Below, piece after piece: positions 1,835 to 11,839 of a stretch of 64,000 nt of DNA. The stretch is from contig JAHECP010000009.1 in the NCBI GenBank assembly GCA_024641665.1, positions 3,038 to 67,037 of the forward strand, read 5' to 3'. A program made the translations under genes and the position numbers. This DNA is from Acidobacteriota bacterium. Lineage in GTDB: Bacteria; Acidobacteriota; Vicinamibacteria; Vicinamibacterales; JAHECP01. The first letter of the stretch is position 1. Each line of letters begins with the position of its first letter. The notes under the pieces are model-generated. The model worked only from the letters and a program-made list of their open reading frames with translations. It did not search any database and had not been told where the DNA came from.

Positions 1835-2641
1835 TCAATCCTCGTCAGCGTTGACTTGCCGGAGGGAAACCTCGATGTTCAAGACTTTGCTCCCGGTAGT
1901 GGCCGCAGCCCTGTACGGCCGAAAGCCCTCTGTTTGTACGGTCAGCCAGTATTCTCCTGGCGGTATTAAGGGAAGAGTGAATGCTCCCCCCTTACTCGTT
2001 CGGACCTCTCTTGTTAAGGGCACCTTGTCCCCCCGAATGCGCACGCGAGCGCCCTGGAGCGGTTTACCGTCAGGGGATCTCACTACCCCGGTGACCTTTC
2101 CCCAATCAAGCGCGGCTTGAATCACTGATCTGGCCCTCTGTGCGCGCTTGCAGGCCGTTGATGGTGCACAGCGGAGCTGTTGGCCGATGGCGCCATAAGT
2201 GAGGCGTTCGAGGTCAGCAAGGACAAACGCATCTCGGTATTCCTTGGGCAGTGTGGCAATGATTCGCCACAAGGAGCTCTGGTCGAACTCGGCGGATGAT
2301 TCCCCTCTATCGTCTGGAAGCCCCTTTTCCGGCAGAGGGCTAAGGACAGAATCACGATTCGACTTCTTCCTTCTTTCCAGCGAAACATTCTTGCCGATCG
2401 TATAGAGCCAACCAATTCGGTGTTGATCCGACTGAGGTGCGCGTCCCCCAACCTCGACCGAACGGAGCAGGATGTCCTGAAGTAGATCACGCGCATCTTC
2501 GGAAGCTTCAGATCGTCTGAGAGCAAAGCCACGAAGCCGGCCGCCATTCCGCTCAAGAAAGGCTTCGAGCCAGCTTAGAAACGTCACTGAAATGCCCCTT
2601 CGCGCAGAAAAAGCCCCCGTACGTAAACGGACGAGGGCCAT
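1835..2641 (-). CDS. ECF (group 4) sigma-70 factor with a C-terminal carboxypeptidase-regulatory-like (CarboxypepD_reg) beta-sandwich extension
   Basis: ORF-track entry 1835..2707. Region 2-like segment ARDLLQDILLRSVE...HRIGWLYTIGKNVSLERRKK. Region 4-like segment LPKEYRDAFVLADLERLTYGAIGQQLRCAPSTACKRAQRARSVI. The tail GKVTGVVRSPDGKPLQGARVRIRG...FTLPLIPPGEYWLTVQTEGF is a typical CarboxypepD_reg pattern. I prefer ATG 2641 as the start because the 2707 start lies inside repeat copy 2; the start remains uncertain. Confidence 0.8.
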   Translation of the reverse strand: MALVRLRTGAFSARRGISVTFLSWLEAFLERNGGRLRGFALRRSEASEDARDLLQDILLRSVEVGGRAPQSDQHRIGWLYTIGKNVSLERRKKSNRDSVLSPLPEKGLPDDRGESSAEFDQSSLWRIIATLPKEYRDAFVLADLERLTYGAIGQQLRCAPSTACKRAQRARSVIQAALDWGKVTGVVRSPDGKPLQGARVRIRGDKVPLTREVRTSKGGAFTLPLIPPGEYWLTVQTEGFRPYRAAATTGSKVLNIEVSLRQVNADED

Positions 2642-2657
2642 ATGAAGGGCGGCTTCA

Positions 2658-2984
2658 TCAACCAAGCTGATGATAACGCCGACGGCAAGCAGGGCAGACC
2701 AGAACATGCCACTGGTCGACGGAGATCGCGCTGGCGGCAGTCGGGACGAAGCCGGTTGCCTTCAGCGCCTTGAGTCGTCGCGTCGCGAGGTGATCCCATG
2801 TCTTGCGCAGTGGACCAACGACGTGGACATCGAATTCCAGTGCCCGTCCGAGCAGCGTCGCGCATTCCTGGCAATCAGCGACGTGGCTCCGCAGGGTAGC
2901 GAGCTGCTCATCAGTTTCAATCAGATGCGGATCTTTCGCAAATGCGCGGAGATGGGCCGCGCACGCGATGACGGTCGGCTTCAC
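2658..2984 (-). CDS. Truncated duplicate of the anti-sigma N-terminal (zf-HC2) domain: 108 aa, no TM or TPR part; either a gene fragment or a soluble anti-sigma domain
   Basis: ORF-track 2658..2984: MKPTVIACAAHLRAFAKDPHLIETDEQLATLRSHVADCQECATLL...VLVCPACRRRYHQLG. From AFAKDP to CPACRR it is identical to the 1-1827 protein. It ends just after the repeat boundary. Confidence 0.5.
   Translation of the reverse strand: MKPTVIACAAHLRAFAKDPHLIETDEQLATLRSHVADCQECATLLGRALEFDVHVVGPLRKTWDHLATRRLKALKATGFVPTAASAISVDQWHVLVCPACRRRYHQLG
2678..2942. repeat. Copy 2 of the 265-bp direct repeat (upstream of the ECF sigma gene)
   Basis: 264/265 identical to 1536-1800. The flanks on both sides are unrelated. Confidence 0.95.
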
Positions 2985-4066: not shown

Positions 4067-4183
4067 ATGAGGAGAGTCTACGACGGCGAGTGCATTCCCC
4101 CTGGGTCGTTCTGTGGTGGTGATTCAGTACCGCCTGGGACGTTCCACGGTGGTGACAGCGTGCCGCCTGGCACGTTCCACTAA
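4067..4183 (+). CDS. 38-aa mini-ORF with three PPG-containing repeats; candidate leader peptide
   Basis: ATG 4067 is preceded by GAGGAGG (4055-4061). The peptide is MRRVYDGECIPPGSFCGGDSVPPGTFHGGDSVPPGTFH. It is the last part of ORF-track entry 3983..4183. It is followed 8 nt later by a strong hairpin. Confidence 0.35.
   Translation: MRRVYDGECIPPGSFCGGDSVPPGTFHGGDSVPPGTFH
4097..4180. repeat. 33-bp tandem repeat, about 2.5 units
   Basis: Units at 4097-4129, 4130-4162 and 4163-4180 (partial). They encode (I/V)PPG(S/T)F(C/H)GGDS. Confidence 0.9.
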
Positions 4184-4190
4184 AGCCACT

Positions 4191-4221
4191 GCCCCGGCGG
4201 GGCCTCGCGCCCCGCCGGGGC
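4191..4221 (+). terminator. GC-rich hairpin (13-bp perfect stem, 5-nt loop) without a U-tract; possible attenuator or terminator
   Basis: gccccggcggggc (4191-4203) / ctcgc / gccccgccggggc (4209-4221) are exact reverse complements. No T-run follows, so this is not a canonical intrinsic terminator. Confidence 0.4.
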
Positions 4222-4315
4222 CTCGGCTCGCAGGAGGACGGGCATGGTGGGGCTTCTCATCTTCTTGGCGCGCCTGCTCGCACCAGACGGCAGCCGCGAG
4301 GAGCGTACGGAATCC

Positions 4316-4594
4316 ATGGCTCAGACGATCTACTACCGCACACGGGACGGACAGGCGGATTACCGCTTTTCGATTGAGCGCCAGTCAGACGGCACGTACC
4401 AGTCCTTCATTCTCTCTCAGCCCAATTACGGATCGCGAGCCACGGGAGCGCACGACACGCATCGTTTGACCGCCAGTGGCCGCCGGTACGTCTGTTGGAA
4501 TCGGCCGCTGCAGAATGCGGAAGAGGCAAAGAGTGTGGCCGCGCTGTGGGCCGATGCCACCCAGGAGTACATCAGGACCGGTCGACGATTCTAA
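4316..4594 (+). CDS. Hypothetical 92-aa protein, first full gene of the JAB-E1 cluster
   Basis: ORF-track 4244..4594 trimmed to ATG 4316 (GAGGAG lies 12 nt upstream). Sequence: MAQTIYYRTRDGQADYRFSIERQSDGTYQSFILSQPNYGSRATGAHDTHRLTASGRRYVCWNRPLQNAEEAKSVAALWADATQEYIRTGRRF. No family that I recognise. Confidence 0.7.
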   Translation: MAQTIYYRTRDGQADYRFSIERQSDGTYQSFILSQPNYGSRATGAHDTHRLTASGRRYVCWNRPLQNAEEAKSVAALWADATQEYIRTGRRF

Positions 4595-4608
4595 AGGTGG
4601 GGACAACC

Positions 4609-6090
4609 ATGAGGCGACCCCGCTGGTGCGAACGGATGACAAGAGATGGCGCACTGTCGGCTATGAAGATCTCCCGCCAGGTATTGGGACGCATCCGGGA
4701 CACCGTCGGTTCGATGCCCCCGGAGACCGGAGGCATGTTAGGTGGAAATCGTGATGTGGGTATGGTCACCCATTTCCATTTCGACCAGGCGGCGACCCAA
4801 ACCGGCGCGACGTACTCGCCGGATTGCGAGCTGCTGAACCGCATTCTCAGCGAGGAATGGAATCCCGCCGGCGTTCGGCTGATGGGCTTCGTACATTCAC
4901 ACCCACGATCGTGTCGGACGCCGTCTGGCGGCGACGAGGTGTACGCGAACAGGATTCTCGCGGCCATTCCGGACATGGATCGGCTGCTGTTGCCGATCGT
5001 GATGACCGATGGCGACAAGGGTCGTTTTGAGCTTCTAGGGTTCACGGCTACTCGGAACGCGGACACGTTGGCGGTCCAGAAGATCCCGATCGCCGTGGAA
5101 GACCAAGACGTCGCCGCCGAAACATGCGTGTCGTTCAAGGAGTTGGCGACCTTTGCGCGGGTGCGTCGGGCCTACGACCTCGACCAGCTTCAGCGTGCGA
5201 GAATCGTCGCGGTCGGGTGCGGCGGGGCCGCCGAGTTTCTCGAGGCGCTCGCGAGAGCGGGTGTGGGAGAATTCGTGCTCATCGACGGGGATGTCGTGTC
5301 AGAGACCAACCTCGCCACCCAACAGACATATCGGTGCGACATTGGCCGCATGAAGGTGGAGGCTATTGCCGAGCGAATCGAGGACATCAATCCTCATGCG
5401 ATCGTGAAGCCGTTGTACCTCTTCTCGCACCAACTCGCGGACGAGGATTTTGGGAGGCTGCTTCGTGTTGTGCGTCGCCGGGAGCAGCCCGGCGTAACGC
5501 TACTCTGCGGCATGACGGATTCGTTCCGGGCGCAGGCGCGCGTCAATCGTTTGGCCCTGCAGTATGTGGTGCCCAGCCTGTGTGCCCAGGTCTACTTCGA
5601 AGGGCGCGGCGCCGAAGTGACGTTCACACATCCCGAGACGACGCCCGCATGCCACCGCTGCATGCTGAGCAGTCGCTATCAGGCGTACCTTCACGAAGGG
5701 TTCCGCAACGAGACGACGTCGGACGGCACACCGATCGGATCCACAGGGCGCCTCAATGCATTGAAATTCCTCGTCGCGATGGCACTCTTGCATCACGGCA
5801 CGGAGCATCCCCGATGGGGCCAGATGCTGCACCGGATCGGCAACCGGAACCTCATTCAGGTACGCCTGGATCCCGATCTCGATCTGCCCGTGTTCGATCG
5901 GGTGTTCGGGACCGCGGATAGGACGCGGATCTTCTGCGACGAGACCGTGTGGTTGCCGCAGTTGCCCGACAATCCGGCCAACGGCTATCCAACGTGCCCC
6001 GACTGCGGTGGGACCGGCGATCTCCGGCACGCCATGGGAACCATTCCTGACACGCGAGAAGTGAGGTGTCAACCATGTGGCAATTTCTGA
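4609..6090 (+). CDS. JAB/JAMM metallopeptidase fused to an E1-like (ThiF/MoeB-type) adenylation domain
   Basis: ORF-track 4495..6090 trimmed to ATG 4609, 15 nt after the previous stop and with AAGGTGGGG upstream. JAMM motifs are PPETGGMLGG and HSHPRSCRTPSGGD (HxHx7Sx2D). The E1 Rossmann segment is RIVAVGCGGAAEFLEALARAGVGEFVLIDGDVVSETNL. CxxC pairs are CHRC and CPDC. Confidence 0.85.
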   Translation: MRRPRWCERMTRDGALSAMKISRQVLGRIRDTVGSMPPETGGMLGGNRDVGMVTHFHFDQAATQTGATYSPDCELLNRILSEEWNPAGVRLMGFVHSHPRSCRTPSGGDEVYANRILAAIPDMDRLLLPIVMTDGDKGRFELLGFTATRNADTLAVQKIPIAVEDQDVAAETCVSFKELATFARVRRAYDLDQLQRARIVAVGCGGAAEFLEALARAGVGEFVLIDGDVVSETNLATQQTYRCDIGRMKVEAIAERIEDINPHAIVKPLYLFSHQLADEDFGRLLRVVRRREQPGVTLLCGMTDSFRAQARVNRLALQYVVPSLCAQVYFEGRGAEVTFTHPETTPACHRCMLSSRYQAYLHEGFRNETTSDGTPIGSTGRLNALKFLVAMALLHHGTEHPRWGQMLHRIGNRNLIQVRLDPDLDLPVFDRVFGTADRTRIFCDETVWLPQLPDNPANGYPTCPDCGGTGDLRHAMGTIPDTREVRCQPCGNF

Positions 6091-7502
6091 TTGGCGGGGA
6101 CTCTGCATTCGCCGCTCTCAAAGAACGGGTCATCGGCGCGTGCGTGGTCTTCCAGCAACAGCCGATGCCGCCCGGGTCGACGCCGACGACCGCGAGGGTG
6201 GGGGTGGAAGTCCGGGCTGCGGACGGCACCGCGACTCTGTTTGTGGAGCGCGGCGTCCAGTACGCAGGCCCAAGCGACGCAGCCCGCCGCTGGCTCGCCG
6301 ACGGGCACATAGAGTTCGACAACTTCGATCAGATGCGCCAATGGATCCAGGTCGACCTGAAGGCCTGCTATACGTCGCCAGCCGATTCGCAGACTCGGCC
6401 GACCCGACGTGAAGACAGCTCCACCCTGGCCGCCGGTGAACTGACTGACCTCCGAGCCGTCGACCGCCAACTTCCTAGGGGTCCGACTGCCACGAACATC
6501 GACGAGAACGGGCTGTTTCAGCAGTTGGTCAGGAGAATTCGAGGGCAGGACGACGCGATGGGGCTGCTTGCCAAACAGGTTCACCGCCATCTGGCTCGGC
6601 GCACGCCCCGGCGTCCGTCAACACTCATGGCGTTGGGGCCGACAGGTGTTGGGAAGACGGCGTCTGCCGAATGCTTGCCAGCCATGCTCCAGGGCCGACT
6701 GCCTGACGGGGCCCAATACGGCTATCTGCGACTCGACATGTCCGAGTACCAGGAGCGCCATCGCATCAGCCAACTGCTGGGGGCACCGCAGGGGTATCTC
6801 GGCTACGACGAAGGCGCGCAGTTGACCAACACCCTCCGGCTCAACCCGCGAACCATCGTCCTGTTCGACGAGATTGAGAAGGCCCACCCTGACATCCTGC
6901 GCGCGCTGATGAATGCGATGGATGCCGGACGCCTCTCCAGCGCCTCGGCAACCGGCGCAGCAGGCCATGAGATCGACTGCCGGCGTGCGATGTTCATCTT
7001 CACCAGCAACCTGGACGCGGGAGGCATTCTGCAGGACCTGAAGACGCGAAACGCGTTCGGCCATCGGAGCGCCGTGGACGCCGTGTGCCGGAACCGCCTG
7101 CGAGCCGCTGGCGTGGCGCCAGAACTCATCGGCCGGATCGGGTGCTTTCTGGTTTTTCGGCCGCTCGACCGAGAGGCCCGCGCGGAGATTGTCACGTTGG
7201 CCATCACGAGGGTCGCCGAGGAGTACGGCGTGCGGGTGACCGGGATCGATCCCACCGTTGTGGCCGACATCCTTAAAGCCTCTCCAGACGAGGGGTTCGG
7301 CGCCCGTCCGGATGAGTACCTGATCGACGAACTGCTCGGGTCATGTTTGGCGGAGGCGGCGGCCGCAGGTCTTGAACAGCCCGCATTGGTTGAAGCGGGT
7401 CCTCCGTACCGATGTGTGCCGTTCGACAGCCGCGCGGCCTTGTCCCTCGACCAATCTGATGCGACCCTCGGAGACAAGCCACGCAAGGAACATCAGATGT
7501 GA
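6075..7502 (+). CDS. AAA+ ATPase of the ClpA/ClpB second-module type (AAA_2 plus D2-small) with an unrecognised ~190-aa N-terminal region
   Basis: ATG 6075 overlaps the E1 stop (6088-6090) by 16 nt. Walker A is LGPTGVGKT and Walker B is IVLFDEIEKAHPD. DMSEYQERH and GAPQGYLGY are typical of Clp D2 modules. Confidence 0.85.
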   Translation: MWQFLIGGDSAFAALKERVIGACVVFQQQPMPPGSTPTTARVGVEVRAADGTATLFVERGVQYAGPSDAARRWLADGHIEFDNFDQMRQWIQVDLKACYTSPADSQTRPTRREDSSTLAAGELTDLRAVDRQLPRGPTATNIDENGLFQQLVRRIRGQDDAMGLLAKQVHRHLARRTPRRPSTLMALGPTGVGKTASAECLPAMLQGRLPDGAQYGYLRLDMSEYQERHRISQLLGAPQGYLGYDEGAQLTNTLRLNPRTIVLFDEIEKAHPDILRALMNAMDAGRLSSASATGAAGHEIDCRRAMFIFTSNLDAGGILQDLKTRNAFGHRSAVDAVCRNRLRAAGVAPELIGRIGCFLVFRPLDREARAEIVTLAITRVAEEYGVRVTGIDPTVVADILKASPDEGFGARPDEYLIDELLGSCLAEAAAAGLEQPALVEAGPPYRCVPFDSRAALSLDQSDATLGDKPRKEHQM

Positions 7503-7555
7503 GAGCCGCCGACCTTTTCCACTTCGAGAATCAGCGAGACAGCCAGGAGACGTCA

Positions 7556-7747
7556 ATGACCGACCACTGCTCGTTCGATCTCGGCGCCGTTACGGTCACG
7601 CTCATCGTCGTTGTAGCCATGGTCGCGATCGTCATCCGTCTCATTCCGGCCCTGCGTCAGATGGTGTGGCAGGTACTGCCCGGGATTTTAGCGCTGTGGC
7701 TGATCGTGGCCGTGCTCCGCGGCATGGTGAAGAAGTTGCTCGGATAG
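7556..7747 (+). CDS. Small membrane protein (63 aa, two predicted TM helices)
   Basis: ORF-track 7499..7747 trimmed to ATG 7556 (AGGAGA lies 6 nt upstream). Hydrophobic runs are AVTVTLIVVVAMVAIVIRLI and VLPGILALWLIVAVL. It lies 54 nt after the AAA+ stop on the same strand. Confidence 0.5.
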   Translation: MTDHCSFDLGAVTVTLIVVVAMVAIVIRLIPALRQMVWQVLPGILALWLIVAVLRGMVKKLLG

Positions 7748-7762
7748 CAGCAGCCCAGACCA

Positions 7763-8284
7763 TCACCGACGCCTGCGCATGCGGTTCTTCAACCGCCACC
7801 ACGTCCAGAACCGAACTGCTCGCTCCCTGACGTGATCGATTCTCGACTCGATCGCTTGCGGCGCCACTCGCTCGCGTCTAGCGTGTTCGCGCAGCGAGAA
7901 CCCGTCGCGCCACAGGGCCTCAATCGTCCTGAGTTCCTTCGGCGAGACCTGGCTGTTGATTCGATACTTCGCAATCTCAGCGGCCACGCACCGCCGGAGT
8001 TCAGCCAGCATGCTTCGTTCCCCGGAGGCCGGCAAGGCAGTTGCTAGGTCCGCCCGGCCGGGAGCAAACGTCCAGACTCCACCGCGCCAGTATCCCGACA
8101 CCGCGCGAGGCCGCCCGAACAGGTCGGCCACATCCGCACGAACGCCGCGCGCCTTGTAGAACGACCATGGATCCGCGACTCGGATCGCGCACCGTCGACG
8201 CGGAGTCGGTCCTCCCGACGCGGCCTTGACTGCCGCCGCCGTCCGACGGCCATGGCGCACGTGGTTAGACCTGATCGTGCGCAT
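7763..8284 (-). CDS. Hypothetical protein with a C-terminal HTH-like segment
   Basis: ORF-track 173 aa. SPKELRTIEALWRDGFSLREHARRERVAPQAIESRIDHVRERA resembles a sigma region-4 / small HTH unit. The N-terminal half is Arg-rich and of uncertain quality. Confidence 0.5.
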   Translation of the reverse strand: MRTIRSNHVRHGRRTAAAVKAASGGPTPRRRCAIRVADPWSFYKARGVRADVADLFGRPRAVSGYWRGGVWTFAPGRADLATALPASGERSMLAELRRCVAAEIAKYRINSQVSPKELRTIEALWRDGFSLREHARRERVAPQAIESRIDHVRERAVRFWTWWRLKNRMRRRR

Positions 8285-9057: not shown

Positions 9058-9879
9058 TTACTGGGCGATCGGTGTCAAGGATCGCCTGCTTAATGCCACG
9101 ATCAACGCATCCACGTGATCAACGGTAACATATGTGCCACCGACGCGCTCGCTGACTGCGTTGATGTACCCCAAGGCCTCGAGCTTACGCAGCCCCGCGC
9201 GGACAGCGTTCACAACGAAGCCTGTCAAGTGCGCGAGCTCGCCAAAGGTCACTGTCTTTTCGACAGCCGCTCGGTAGCCCAAGTACCGTAGAGTCGGATG
9301 AAGCCGATGAACGGTGCCACACGTCGGGACGACGCAGAAATGACCGACTGCGAGCGCAGGCTCACGGCGCAGAGGCATCCAGGCCAATGCGCTGGACGCC
9401 ATCCGAAGGATAGTCATAGCGGCCAGAGCACGTTCGAAGCTCTGGGTTCTCAAGAGTTCAGCCGTGGCTGCGCACGGAATCTCCAGGAGCAGCGCTACGC
9501 GAGTGCGGCGGGACGCGACCGGGCAGGCACGCAGCCCAAGGTCGAGCCACGGCAGGTCGAGCAGACCGGAGGCGAGTTCGCCGAAAAGATCGGCTTCGCA
9601 GCAAGTGCATAGGGCAACACCATTGCCAGCCGGAAGGTTCTCCCATTGCAGACTCACTCGGCCTCCCAGCACGCAATACAGATGGCCGTGTTCCGGCAAC
9701 CTAGTGTCGAAAGCGGCACCGCTGGCGTCCACTTCCAGAATAGCCGAGTTCTTCCTGTAACGCTCGAGCACCGCGCGTAGGGCAGCCCGGTCACCGTCCG
9801 GACACGCAGAGAAGGCGTTCGGGCCCGCGAACATTCGATCGAGCGCTCCGATTGTGGCCGCCGTTCGTCGAATCATCAC
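9058..9879 (-). CDS. Crp/Fnr-family-like transcriptional regulator (cNMP-binding-like barrel plus C-terminal HTH)
   Basis: HLYCVLGGRVSLQWENLPAGNGVALCTCCEADLFGELA is the barrel with the FGE motif. VTFGELAHLTGFVVNAVRAGLRKLEALGYI is a Crp-type HTH. Confidence 0.65.
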   Translation of the reverse strand: MMIRRTAATIGALDRMFAGPNAFSACPDGDRAALRAVLERYRKNSAILEVDASGAAFDTRLPEHGHLYCVLGGRVSLQWENLPAGNGVALCTCCEADLFGELASGLLDLPWLDLGLRACPVASRRTRVALLLEIPCAATAELLRTQSFERALAAMTILRMASSALAWMPLRREPALAVGHFCVVPTCGTVHRLHPTLRYLGYRAAVEKTVTFGELAHLTGFVVNAVRAGLRKLEALGYINAVSERVGGTYVTVDHVDALIVALSRRSLTPIAQ

Positions 9880-10270: not shown

Positions 10271-11839
10271 GTGACCTCGAAATCGCCGAGAGACGCGGGC
10301 GAGTCGCAGCCCGACGGAAAACGCCTCAACGGATGGGGTCAGATTGCGACCTACCTGGGGACAAGTGTTAAGACGGCTAGGCGATATGAGCAACGGGAAG
10401 GGATGCCCGTCTATCGCCACCAGCACGCCACAAGGTCGTCCGTCTATGCGTTCGAATCGGAGCTCGCCACTTGGCGAGCCGGGCGTCGGCCAACCAATGT
10501 CGATCCGGCAAGGCTGCAGCACAGGCCGCTCTCCACGGACGAGCCACCTCGAGCGACCTCGAAGTCACGATCATTGGTCAGCGAGGACGCCGCCCTCGGC
10601 CTCTTGCCAGCTATTCGCCTGGCCTATGTGCTGTTGCGGCTGGACCAGTTGCCGGGGGTCGGGACATGGGGATTCACGATTAACAAGTACATCGAACTCA
10701 ATTACTCAACAAATGCGCAGATACTCAGACAGAGGAACGCCTATCTAATCGAGGGGAGCATTACGCACACTGCTCATGCGCTCCGAGGTCTTGGATTCCT
10801 ACGCACGTCGCTTCCGGGCGTTCAGCCCCAGTTGATTCGACAATGGATTGAACGACACAGTGTCAATGTGGGCTTCATAGAACTAGCCCTTCCGGCGAAT
10901 CCGGACGAGGCTCGCGACATCGCCAAACAGGTCAGGCACACTGCTAGTGCAATTTTGGCGTCGCTTCGCTTGCGGGCCCACGTGTCCATTGCCGCCGGTG
11001 TCGCGGAGATTGAGCGGTGGGCAGACGCACGAGCCAAGCTACTGCTGCGCTTTGCGAGCGTATGGGTCCACGACCCCGAAATGACCTACTCGCACGCCTA
11101 CCTGCTTGAGCTGTTTGACCTGCTGAGGGGTGAGACTCGATATGCCAGCCTAAGGCCTGAACTGACGAGCCAAATCGATCATGGCCTCGGCCGACTGTTT
11201 GATCGGATCTCACTTGTGTCTCCCTACTGGTGCTGGGACACACATCGTGAGACGAAGAGATTCTACACGTTGTTGATCCTGACGCGCATCCTCTCCATTG
11301 CGGAGACATATCGCGAGCCGGCATGGGTAGATCGAGTGCACGCTTGTCTGGAAGATATTGGACGAAGCGCCCGGGGAATTGGGGGCGTTTCGCTCGGCGA
11401 GGGATCCCAAGAGAGCCGGTTCGGCAGGCCGGATCTTGGAGCAACGGCGGCGTTCTTTGGTTGCTGCCAACAAGCGAGCCGATTTGGGCTGCCCATCGAG
11501 CGATTGGGAGCAGAAGCGTATGAAATGCTCAGAAACGTCTGGGACACATTCGAGGAGTCAGCAGAGAATTCGATCACTCATACATGGGAGGCGATCGTCT
11601 CGCTGGTTGATAGGACAGACCTCTTGAAGAGCCTTGACAGTCAGGTGTTGTGCGAGCAGCTTGAGCCGCAGTTGCAGGGCGTCGTGAACGAGCTCGCCTC
11701 GGCCTGTGAGCTGCCATCAAAGGCAATACGCGAGATTGGAGAGGCAATTGGCTGTCCGGACCGGCTAGCGTGGTGTTTTGAACGTGACATTTGGCGGAGT
11801 GCCGTTCATCGCATCCAAAAGACCGCTGATAGACGGTGA
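10271..11839 (+). CDS. 522-aa protein with an N-terminal HTH (GWGQIATYLGTSVKTARRYEQREGMPV); the rest is helical and unassigned
   Basis: ORF-track entry with a GTG start. Coding-like composition throughout. I recognise no catalytic motif. Confidence 0.65.
   Translation: MTSKSPRDAGESQPDGKRLNGWGQIATYLGTSVKTARRYEQREGMPVYRHQHATRSSVYAFESELATWRAGRRPTNVDPARLQHRPLSTDEPPRATSKSRSLVSEDAALGLLPAIRLAYVLLRLDQLPGVGTWGFTINKYIELNYSTNAQILRQRNAYLIEGSITHTAHALRGLGFLRTSLPGVQPQLIRQWIERHSVNVGFIELALPANPDEARDIAKQVRHTASAILASLRLRAHVSIAAGVAEIERWADARAKLLLRFASVWVHDPEMTYSHAYLLELFDLLRGETRYASLRPELTSQIDHGLGRLFDRISLVSPYWCWDTHRETKRFYTLLILTRILSIAETYREPAWVDRVHACLEDIGRSARGIGGVSLGEGSQESRFGRPDLGATAAFFGCCQQASRFGLPIERLGAEAYEMLRNVWDTFEESAENSITHTWEAIVSLVDRTDLLKSLDSQVLCEQLEPQLQGVVNELASACELPSKAIREIGEAIGCPDRLAWCFERDIWRSAVHRIQKTADRR

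Follow-up and report, generated by a model that had tools for sequence, protein, structure and literature searches.

What does a fused JAB peptidase and E1-type enzyme act on in a bacterial gene cluster that seems to contain neither an E2 nor a ubiquitin-like protein (Ubl)? The question is raised by five same-strand open reading frames (ORFs) at nucleotides (nt) 4067 to 7747 of a 64,000-nt stretch of DNA, here called the window, from an Acidobacteriota bacterium (GCA_024641665.1, contig JAHECP010000009.1, positions 3,038 to 67,037 of the forward strand). An original prediction, made from the letters of the window, had described a JAB-E1 fusion, a ClpB-type AAA+ ATPase, a 92-amino-acid (aa) orphan, and a small membrane protein without a recognizable E2 or Ubl. 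All five ORFs were present where they had been placed when the coordinates were rechecked, and the conserved operon centered on the JAB-E1 fusion is real: every cluster ORF except that of the 63-aa membrane protein has homologues in the same order on dozens of unrelated contigs. The statement that there is no Ubl has to be revised, as the ORF at 4067-4183, which the prediction passed over, encodes a tandem-repeat peptide that covaries with the active-site regions of the E1 and the JAB. The interpretation that we put first, tentatively and at a little under even probability, is an E1-E2-JAB pathway resembling the Bub (6E) operons, with a short repeat peptide, of three units here, as a non-β-grasp modifier.

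A tandem-repeat peptide gene precedes the JAB-E1 fusion

The window peptide reads MRRVYD-GECIPPGSFCG-GDSVPPGTFHG-GDSVPPGTFH, one degenerate unit followed by two canonical units, and its ORF stops precisely at the unit-terminal His. Between units 2 and 3 there are six nucleotide differences, every one of them synonymous, among them a TCA/AGC switch of Ser codon family; selection therefore acts on the peptide and, judged by its codons, the ORF is translated and constrained. It is absent from the public protein collection, where it was not called as a gene, and what is probably the key to the system has been missed by gene callers.

Related loci were collected by tblastn and ORF extraction (25 genome loci and 80 metagenome loci), and the counts given throughout are of non-redundant loci whose flanks are long enough. 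A homologous repeat peptide is encoded upstream of JAB-E1 in 60 of 66 loci, or in 61 of 66 if the single-unit ORF of locus L001 is counted. The 60 non-redundant peptides contain 176 units in total (1 to 11 per peptide), with the consensus (G)G-[DE]-x-[IV]-P-x-G-T-F-[HR] and a length of 9 to 11 residues. The ORF ends precisely at the end of a unit in 37 of the 60 and with a tail of ≤4 residues in 55; the last unit residue is His in 54 peptides and Arg in 6. Leaders are not conserved, and the degenerate first unit ends in Cys, Tyr, or Gln. An alternative unit frame, DSVPPGTFHGG with a ubiquitin-like Gly-Gly end, was rejected: most ORFs end in ...GTFH/R, the L001 peptide has a single unit, and the spacer is variable (GG, G, GE, or SG).

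A hairpin directly follows the peptide gene. The window hairpin folds at -45.6 kcal/mol (z -3.2), and a long GC-rich stem-loop of unrelated sequence occupies the matching position in 49 of 55 loci; it could be an attenuator or an mRNA stabilizer. In L082, a locus without a PPGTFH peptide, a 48-aa Cys-rich ORF (379-525; CAVCKGSGKCQGCGG...CPRCRG) is found upstream of the 92-aa gene; it may encode another substrate or be spurious.

Covariation and fusions tie the peptide to the enzymes

Loci were grouped by the unit-terminal residue (49 His type and 8 Arg type), and the columns of the enzyme alignments were compared. At E1 residue 374 (nt 5728-5730), Thr is found in 49 of 49 His-type loci, and Ser (seven loci) or Ala (one locus) in all eight Arg-type loci. 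E1 K386 is Lys in 49 of 49 His-type loci and lost in six of eight Arg-type loci, while JAB G108, beside the Zn ligand D109, is Gly in 47 of 49 and changed in six of eight, respectively. The Arg-type loci, among them L079 with a peptide ending in ...GTFHR, represent at least five independent lineages, and the nearest relative of each is a His-type locus with Gly-Thr-Lys at the three positions. Loss of K386 is electrostatically sensible once the terminus is Arg. T374 sits 23 residues past the first CxxC, a position that we take, from UBA5 numbering, to be roughly the crossover-loop site of the catalytic Cys. As an obligatory oxyester nucleophile T374 was rejected, given the Ala in one Arg-type locus.

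Two loci encode the peptide and the 92-aa domain in one ORF. In L074 (5488-5883), ...DRVPVGSFH is joined directly to the 92-aa domain, and in L066 (1977-2501) a unit ending ...GGDEIPAGTFH is followed by a transmembrane helix and the 92-aa domain. By analogy with BubAB, these can be read as Rosetta-stone fusions. Covariation and fusions together speak for both catalytic domains handling the unit-end residue: the JAB would cut there, and the E1 would bind the new C terminus.

Core and accessory genes and their distribution

The 92-aa protein is encoded in 67 of 72 loci. A domain of ∼100 aa (the N-domain) directly follows JAB-E1 in 59 of 76 loci and is fused to an AAA_2-type ATPase in 41 of 59, which bears out the suspected co-occurrence of the JAB-E1 fusion with the AAA+ gene. 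JAB-E1, the repeat peptide, and the 92-aa protein make up the core of the system, to which the N-domain is often added as an accessory, either by itself or together with the ATPase.

Matches were found in 25 of 185,579 species genomes, a sporadic pattern, and these consist of metagenome-assembled genomes (MAGs) plus two genome records not labeled as MAGs. They cover at least seven phyla: Acidobacteriota, Planctomycetota, the Planctomycetota-Verrucomicrobiota-Chlamydiota (PVC) group (Kiritimatiellae and Lentisphaerae), Pseudomonadota, Actinomycetota, Myxococcota, and Desulfobacterota. A scan of viral contigs returned no relatives and no evidence of the cluster being phage-borne.

The JAB-E1 fusion

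The JAMM motif of the JAB part is complete, as originally read (E39 in PETGG; H96-S-H98-x7-S106-x2-D109), and across 23 aligned homologues E39, H96, H98, and D109 do not vary and S106 hardly does. The ThiF Rossmann motif and the two CxxC pairs of the E1 part were also verified, and G203-x-G205-G206, D226/D228, K249, D304, C348/C351, and C463/C466 are invariant in the 23 sequences. The E1/ThiF/MoeB superfamily is represented by its Rossmann motif, ribose Asp, catalytic Lys/Asp, and Zn CxxC pairs, but not by the Arg of NxxRQ. The unusual reading TNLATQ, with Thr for this Arg, had been pointed out before and is correct. N234, T237, and Q238 of the window motif TNLATQQ are invariant in the same alignment, and a profile alignment places Thr237 (nt 5317-5319) on the Arg of the TcdA NRQ motif; the replacement is therefore characteristic of the family rather than a mutation peculiar to this locus. 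The Arg of (S/T)N(L)xRQ contacts the ATP phosphates in known E1s.

Close sequence relatives in the PDB include TcdA, MoeB, and MccB (1e-15 to 1e-12, with MccB at 1e-12), and PaaA matches at 2e-9. Comparison with BubCD gave an E value of 1e-4 over 69 residues, confined to the Rossmann core. A large protein collection holds at least 746 JAB-E1 homologues, at ∼50% identity and E values near 1e-160. A low-GC, divergent JAB-E1 of 636 aa with a hydrophobic N-terminal extension is encoded in L106 (5779-7689); the repeat peptide, the 92-aa gene, and the N-domain are all missing from its surroundings, and it may be a separate subfamily with another substrate.

The 92-aa protein, a candidate mini-E2

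The 92-aa "orphan" cannot be left aside in a cluster said to have no recognizable E2: it is a conserved family, and its best matches in the PDB, at a non-significant level, are to a bacterial E2. An alignment of 32 sequences shows invariant Y7, T9, D11, Y16, F18, P36, Y38, T48-H49-R50, C60-W61, W78, T82, Q83, and Y85; the Cys60 codon is at nt 4493-4495. The protein matches nothing in Pfam, NCBIfam, or PADLOC. An AlphaFold2 (AF2) model from the family alignment (predicted local distance difference test score [pLDDT], 94.4) runs from a meander of three strands through a short helix at the THR motif and a hairpin to Cys60 and then a long helix. The two best Foldseek matches of this model in the PDB are the E2 subunit of the Serratia CdnG-E2 complex of a cyclic-oligonucleotide-based antiphage signaling system (CBASS), with a query-normalized TM-score (TMq) of 0.57 to 0.61 and a non-significant E value of 0.8 to 2. 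The family profile found nothing among PDB sequences, hhalign found nothing against UBE2D2 or against a Prok-E2_D neighbor, and Foldseek against viral structures gave nothing informative. The reading of the 92-aa protein as a mini-E2 has moderate support and is strengthened by the operon position, the conserved His...Cys pair, and the fusions of a unit with the 92-aa domain.

An N-terminal, transmembrane-like extension is clear in 17 of 77 homologues. In two Kiritimatiellae/Lentisphaerae-type loci (L020, 11546-11833, and L078, 9574-9861), three copies of the 92-aa gene lie downstream of the AAA+ gene. In the middle one, the THR...Cys region has been replaced by DEVPPGC, a copy of the motif of the peptide and the N-domain; we call this paralogue inactive.

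The N-domain, the AAA+ module, and the membrane protein

The N terminus of the AAA+ protein, ∼190 aa that the original prediction could not assign, resolves into the separable, conserved N-domain plus a linker. The AF2 model of the N-domain has a pLDDT of 92.3, and its best Foldseek match in the PDB reaches a TMq of 0.37, which is no fold match. Comparisons with the 92-aa family (hhalign E value, 0.25) and with UBE2D2 were not significant, and remote kinship is only a lead. A word-indexed homologue search with the AAA+ N terminus returned no matches; an exhaustive search of representatives found the N-domain in 182 clusters at 50% identity. It occurs alone (L027, 108 aa), with a Clp-D1-like AAA type (356 to 373 aa), with the D2 type (420 to 480 aa), with a tail resembling DUF697, and in one case after a TIR-TPR fragment. 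The last, P0211, is a probably truncated protein of 261 aa with TIR_2, TPR repeats, and the N-domain at residues 165 to 261; it is the sole case in which the N-domain is not N-terminal and the sole link to a classical immune effector domain.

The exposed β1-β2 loop of the N-domain carries a conserved [QE]-[EP]-[ML]-P-P-G-[STC]-x-P motif (Q-P-M-P-P-G-S in the window), which resembles the peptide unit D-E-I-P-P-G-T. This E-h-P-P-G motif, common to the peptide units, the N-domain loop, and the inactive 92-aa paralogue, suggests a shared docking epitope.

The Clp D2 motifs reported earlier for the AAA+ protein were all verified: Walker A GPTGVGKT, Walker B DEIEKAH, pore loop GYLGY, sensor-1 TSN, Arg finger DAGR, and sensor-2 GARP. 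Pfam matches are AAA_2 (3.4e-36) and, weakly, ClpB_D2-small, and the ClpB match (7.7e-53) covers the D2 region only. No IGF/IGL ClpP-docking tripeptide is evident in the module. In the linker between the N-domain and the AAA+ module (nt 6420-6450, aa ∼116 to 128), a short motif, (E)LTD(L/M)xAV, is kept within an otherwise variable stretch, also in other loci. Pfam gave no match for any cluster product other than JAB-E1 and the ATPase.

The proposal that a small membrane peptide is part of the cluster stands in so far as small membrane proteins recur downstream, but their families are not homologous. Two unrelated families of multi-pass membrane proteins (126 to 152 aa) follow the AAA+ gene in other loci, and the 63-aa ORF of the window has no homologues by tblastn. 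It is a positional analogue and not a homologue of those families, an accessory part; as a conserved core component it was rejected, even though functionally similar small membrane proteins recur. The spacing of the cluster was also confirmed at JAB-E1, which begins 15 nt past 4594, and at the 16-nt overlap (6075/6090), whereas the final gap is 53 nt and not 54, the ORF at 7556 starting 54 nt after the AAA+ stop.

Comparison with described systems

As had been supposed, the cluster lies outside CBASS, Bil, Bub, 6A-MBL, Dodola, and every PADLOC or NCBIfam family, with matches that are partial and below the cut-off. Neither the peptide nor the 92-aa protein nor the N-domain has a model in NCBIfam (release June 2026) or PADLOC 2.0, and no description of the peptide motif or the gene combination (JAB, E1, AAA+, and ThiF-like enzymes of peptides that are ribosomally synthesized and then modified post-translationally [RiPPs]) was found in full-text literature and curated libraries. 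The conserved cluster is apparently an undescribed new variant among ubiquitination-like operons of bacteria.

Five types of JAB/E1 operon have been distinguished; in 6e, a gene for a standalone E2/RWD-like protein lies between a polyUbl gene and a JAB-E1 fusion, and there are accessory genes (Iyer et al. 2006, PMC1779556). In the Bub system, the JAB of BubCD cleaves the BubAB Ubl-E2 fusion after Gly, and the E1 lacks a catalytic Cys and works through oxyester intermediates (Ye et al. 2024, PMC11601596). The present cluster resembles type I Bub (6E.1) in that a JAB is N-terminal to a ThiF-like E1 in one polypeptide, a likeness of architecture and not of close homology. Gene order is also alike, with modifier, small UBC-like protein, and JAB-E1 represented here by peptide, 92-aa protein, and JAB-E1 and there by polyUbl, E2/RWD-like protein, and JAB-E1. 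Both have the modifier in tandem copies (polyUbl there, poly-peptide here), modifier-E2 translational fusions in some loci, for which JAB cleavage would be needed, a noncanonical E1 (here with no Cys after the first CxxC, where UBA5 and ThiF have theirs), and a sporadic, mobile distribution. The differences are as clear. The Ubl of BubAB consists of one to three β-grasp domains with a conserved Gly end and is fused to the E2, whereas here there is no β-grasp, and units of 9 to 11 aa end in His or Arg and are fused in two loci only. BubB is a Ser-type E2 with oxyester chemistry, whereas the 92-aa candidate has the invariant Cys60 at the putative position. The place of BubE, a DUF6527 serine protease, is taken by the N-domain-AAA+ ATPase, and DUF6527 was matched neither by eight window proteins nor among the 25 commonest families of 118 neighbor ORFs. 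In addition, the NxxRQ Arg of JAB-E1 is Thr, and its similarity to BubCD is no closer than that to TcdA, MoeB, and MccB.

Type II CBASS (Cap2/Cap3, and the E2-only CdnG-E2, PDB 8hsb/8yjy) shares E1/E2/JAB-type chemistry on a C-terminal tail other than that of a β-grasp Ubl, and the E2 of CdnG-E2 gives the 92-aa model its best, non-significant structural match. The PADLOC E1-E2 models match the E1 part only (aa 173 to 351). Here, in contrast, there is no CD-NTase or CBASS-type effector, E1 and E2 are unfused, the JAB is on the E1, and the substrate would be a free repeat peptide. The 6A-MBL system requires a triple E2-E1-JAB protein and a metallo-β-lactamase (MBL); NF058523 scored 57.6 bits against a cut-off of 320, and there is no MBL gene.

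The ThiF-like RiPP enzymes (MccB of microcin C, PaaA of pantocin A, and IndF; Rajput et al. 2025, PMC12150305) offer an analogy in which an E1-like domain acts on the C terminus of an adjacent short ribosomal peptide, and their precursor genes, too, are small and easily missed. Those systems differ in having an N-terminal peptide clamp/RiPP recognition element (RRE), a single core, dedicated exporters, and no UBC-like partner or AAA+ protein; here a JAB is at the N terminus.

ClpB, ClpA, and ClpV of the Hsp100 group share all D2-type motifs with the ATPase, including the pore-loop Tyr. The ATPase differs in having one AAA+ module and no Clp N-domain, M-domain, or D1; NCBIfam ClpB scored 180 bits against a cut-off of 1232, over model positions 561 to 830 of 853. 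Dodola DolB and PDC-M37B of PADLOC match the AAA core only (44 to 58 bits, aa 151 to 321). Neither DUF6414 (DolA) nor any other PADLOC family was matched by neighboring window proteins, and the partner genes of PDC-M37B are absent. The Pup-proteasome system (Pup, PafA, Dop, and Mpa) has a small unstructured peptide tag, an AAA+ unfoldase as reader, and a tag-processing enzyme, to which the present genes may be likened. There, ligation is by the glutamine-synthetase-like PafA and not by E1/E2, Pup is 64 aa long and not in tandem, and Mpa feeds the proteasome; unlike Mpa, the AAA+ protein has no protease partner to be seen in the cluster.

Genomic context

In L110 and L111, the operon is flanked by serine recombinases, an XRE regulator, a tyrosine integrase, and a TrwB/TraG-like ATPase of ∼1050 aa, and in L027 it adjoins a Prok-E2_D/ThiF/DUF6094/helicase set. 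TrwB/VirD4/HerA-FtsK-like ATPases are encoded downstream on the same strand in at least 10 loci (Table 1), some with a C-terminal helix-turn-helix domain (HTH_17), and directly after JAB-E1 where the N-domain-AAA+ gene is missing. Their role may be that of a partner ATPase in place of the AAA+ protein, or they may simply serve the host element as its coupling protein. Among the 118 neighbor ORFs, the commonest families are AAA_16, TrwB_AAD_bind, and XRE-type HTH; DISARM models match two ORFs and PADLOC mad8 matches nine. This context supports, without proving, a role in genetic conflict on mobile elements, and an immune role is an inference from the mobile elements and the occasional defense genes nearby.

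Table 1. Coordinates of the cluster features in the window and of downstream ATPase genes in related loci
Feature	Position (nt)	Strand	Remarks
Tandem-repeat peptide gene, 38 aa	4067-4183	+	ATG start; GAGGAGG ribosome binding site 7-13 nt upstream
13-bp GC hairpin	4191-4221	+	Directly after peptide stop codon; no U-tract
92-aa domain protein	core 4316-4594	+	116-aa form from ATG 4244, with its own AGGAGGA site, adds a short hydrophobic N terminus
JAB-E1 fusion, 493 aa	4609-6090	+	Prok-JAB and ThiF in one polypeptide
JAMM peptidase domain, ~aa 19-118	4663-4962	+	Pfam Prok-JAB, aa 35-117, 2.3e-6
ThiF/E1 adenylation domain, ~aa 180-490	5146-6087	+	Pfam ThiF, aa 188-358, 3.8e-23
AAA+ protein, 475 aa	6075-7502	+	ATG start; 16-nt overlap with JAB-E1
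System-specific N-domain, ~100 aa	6075-6374	+	Predicted helix-helix-strand-strand-strand-helix-strand-helix
Single ClpB/ClpA-D2-type AAA+ module and lid	6618-7502	+	Residues ~150-475; motifs read from translation
Membrane protein, 63 aa, two hydrophobic helices	7556-7747	+	82 aa if GTG 7499 is the start
TrwB/VirD4/HerA-like ATPase, L003	11809-15078	same as operon	
TrwB/VirD4/HerA-like ATPase, L038	4946-8203	same as operon	
TrwB/VirD4/HerA-like ATPase, L060	5039-6697	same as operon	
TrwB/VirD4/HerA-like ATPase, L071	7728-9581	same as operon	
TrwB/VirD4/HerA-like ATPase, L080	7634-9697	same as operon	
TrwB/VirD4/HerA-like ATPase, L095	9317-11914	same as operon	
TrwB/VirD4/HerA-like ATPase, L046	8834-10936	same as operon	
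TrwB/VirD4/HerA-like ATPase, L010	2954-4273	same as operon	
TrwB/VirD4/HerA-like ATPase, L110	13989-17189	same as operon	
TrwB/VirD4/HerA-like ATPase, L111	14075-17191	same as operon	

Elsewhere in the window, a 287-nt direct repeat (1523-1809 and 2665-2951; 97% identical, 1142 nt apart) brackets a gene for an extracytoplasmic function (ECF)-sigma-like protein with a C-terminal β-rich extension (1835-2707, minus strand) and copies a segment of an anti-sigma-like ORF (2658-2984, minus strand) that has an HxxxCxxC motif. Downstream of the cluster, the ORFs at 7763-8284 (-), 9058-9879 (-), and 10271-11839 (+) belong to no Pfam family, and none has homologues adjoining the cluster in other loci. 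The 522-aa product of the last has a weak N-terminal HTH match (PADLOC mad1, 4.8e-4; IS21 HTH, 3.9e-3).

Proposed pathway and alternatives

The pathway that we propose would run as follows. The hairpin after the peptide gene would raise expression of the peptide over that of the enzymes. The JAB would cut the precursor after each unit-terminal His (Arg in some loci), freeing a carboxylate, and the E1 would bind the new terminus beside T374 and K386 and adenylate it. The activated peptide would then pass to Cys60 of the UBC-like 92-aa protein, which is membrane-anchored in some relatives by prediction, and from there to an acceptor. The N-domain-AAA+ protein would dock through its peptide-like E-h-P-P-G loop and act as a reader or effector that unfolds or remodels targets, and the small membrane protein would complete the module. 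The system travels on integrative mobile elements and probably serves in genetic conflict.

Several observations weigh against this pathway. Canonical E1 enzymes act on a C-terminal Gly, whereas the peptide terminus is His or Arg, and the change of Arg to Thr in NxxRQ may mean that adenylation is altered. The E2 assignment of the 92-aa protein depends on a structural match that is not significant, with nothing at the sequence or profile level. Neither the 92-aa protein nor the N-domain has an invariant Lys as an acceptor, and the N-domain does not covary with the peptide terminus. The AAA+ protein is not a core part, because its gene is missing in 18 of 59 loci, and T374 would be a specificity contact and not an obligatory nucleophile, because one locus has Ala there. 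Finally, a small precursor gene with a hairpin, beside a protease and a ThiF-like enzyme, also fits a RiPP cluster.

In such a cluster, the ORF would encode a leader followed by 1 to 11 identical cores of a multi-core RiPP or peptide-derived metabolite; the JAB would excise them, the ThiF-like domain would activate the C-terminal His for macrocyclization or formation of an adduct, as in MccB, PaaA, and IndF, the 92-aa protein would be a scaffold or carrier, and the AAA+, membrane, and TrwB-like proteins would serve export or self-protection. We consider this, the main rival, unlikely on balance. Activation of peptide carboxylates by ThiF-like tailoring enzymes is established for RiPPs, the better sequence matches in the PDB include MccB and PaaA, and membrane proteins and translocase-type ATPases lie downstream. 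The mccA-mccB arrangement of precursor-like gene, hairpin, and enzyme is similar to that seen here, where the unannotated precursor-like gene stands beside the enzyme with a hairpin between them in 49 of 55 loci. The covariation of the peptide C terminus with E1 and JAB fits a RiPP equally well. However, the "core" is nearly invariant across phyla and the leader variable, the reverse of most antimicrobial RiPPs, though cofactor-type RiPPs are alike in this, and a secreted product would not readily account for the fusions of a unit with the 92-aa domain or for the Bub-like gene order. There is no conserved RRE or peptide clamp, ABC/MFS exporter, or other tailoring enzyme (ABC_tran occurs in 2 of 118 neighbor ORFs), the order of secondary structures in the 92-aa model differs from that of the RRE winged helix, and 2025 reviews of ThiF-like RiPP enzymes do not mention JAB-linked enzymes or tandem-repeat precursors.

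A regulatory role for the peptide as a pseudo-substrate is improbable. The client of JAB-E1 and the 92-aa protein would then be the N-domain-AAA+ protein or another E-h-P-P-G protein, and the peptide a competitive decoy or antitoxin-like buffer that fills the same groove and restrains the ATPase or membrane effector until depleted. The motif common to peptide, exposed N-domain loop, and inactive 92-aa paralogue would be expected of a decoy, the hairpin implies an excess of peptide, and the N-domain is combined with interchangeable effector modules (AAA+ proteins of two types, DUF697-like tails, and a single TIR-TPR fragment), as is typical of conflict systems. Covariation between the extreme C-terminal residue and the catalytic neighbors T374, K386, and G108 points, however, to catalysis and not to mere binding; the JAMM and adenylation residues are conserved, and loci without the N-domain keep the peptide, the 92-aa protein, and JAB-E1. 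Least probable by far, in our estimate, is a sulfur carrier like CysO/Mec+/MoeZ or QbsE/QbsD/QbsC, with the JAB trimming and the E1 adenylating a peptide carrier to give a C-terminal thiocarboxylate. MoeB and ThiF are among the closest solved relatives, and JAB and E1 without an E2 are the classical arrangement there (Iyer et al. 2006, rows 4a-4e, PMC1779556). Yet JAB-fused E1s of the 6a-6e type never carry rhodanese (Iyer et al. 2006, PMC1779556), and the cluster itself contains neither a rhodanese nor a β-grasp carrier with a Gly-Gly end. The conserved neighbors include no genes for sulfur metabolism, cofactors, or siderophores, and the sporadic, mobile-element distribution is unlike that of housekeeping metabolism.

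Implications

The E1-E2-JAB pathway proposed here, with a peptide as its modifier, has a bolder form, to which we give about the same rather low weight as to the RiPP cluster: a third kind of prokaryotic protein tagging, beside Pup and Ubl/SAMP. Tags of 9 to 11 residues, encoded in a polyubiquitin-like tandem gene, would be excised by a JAB, activated at His or Arg by a Thr-bearing E1, and attached covalently by the 92-aa minimal E2 to proteins or membrane lipids, with an AAA+ unfoldase as reader. The covariation of T374 and K386 with the peptide terminus offers a directly testable specificity code. If the RiPP explanation were true instead, the cluster would stand for a new class of RiPPs, one that has multi-core precursors and a JAB protease.

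To our knowledge, all characterized E1-E2 conjugation pathways rely on a β-grasp modifier or, in the case of CBASS, on a folded enzyme's tail. If the proposed pathway is correct, the same machinery acts on a short, free peptide that is repeated in its gene and has a His or Arg terminus, and E1-E2 chemistry works without any β-grasp fold. This would bear on what E1 enzymes can activate and on how a polyubiquitin-type gene, JAB processing, a minimal E2, and an AAA+ reader could be assembled without ubiquitin. The pathway would also bear on the cargo of integrative elements in Planctomycetota, Acidobacteriota, and PVC bacteria.

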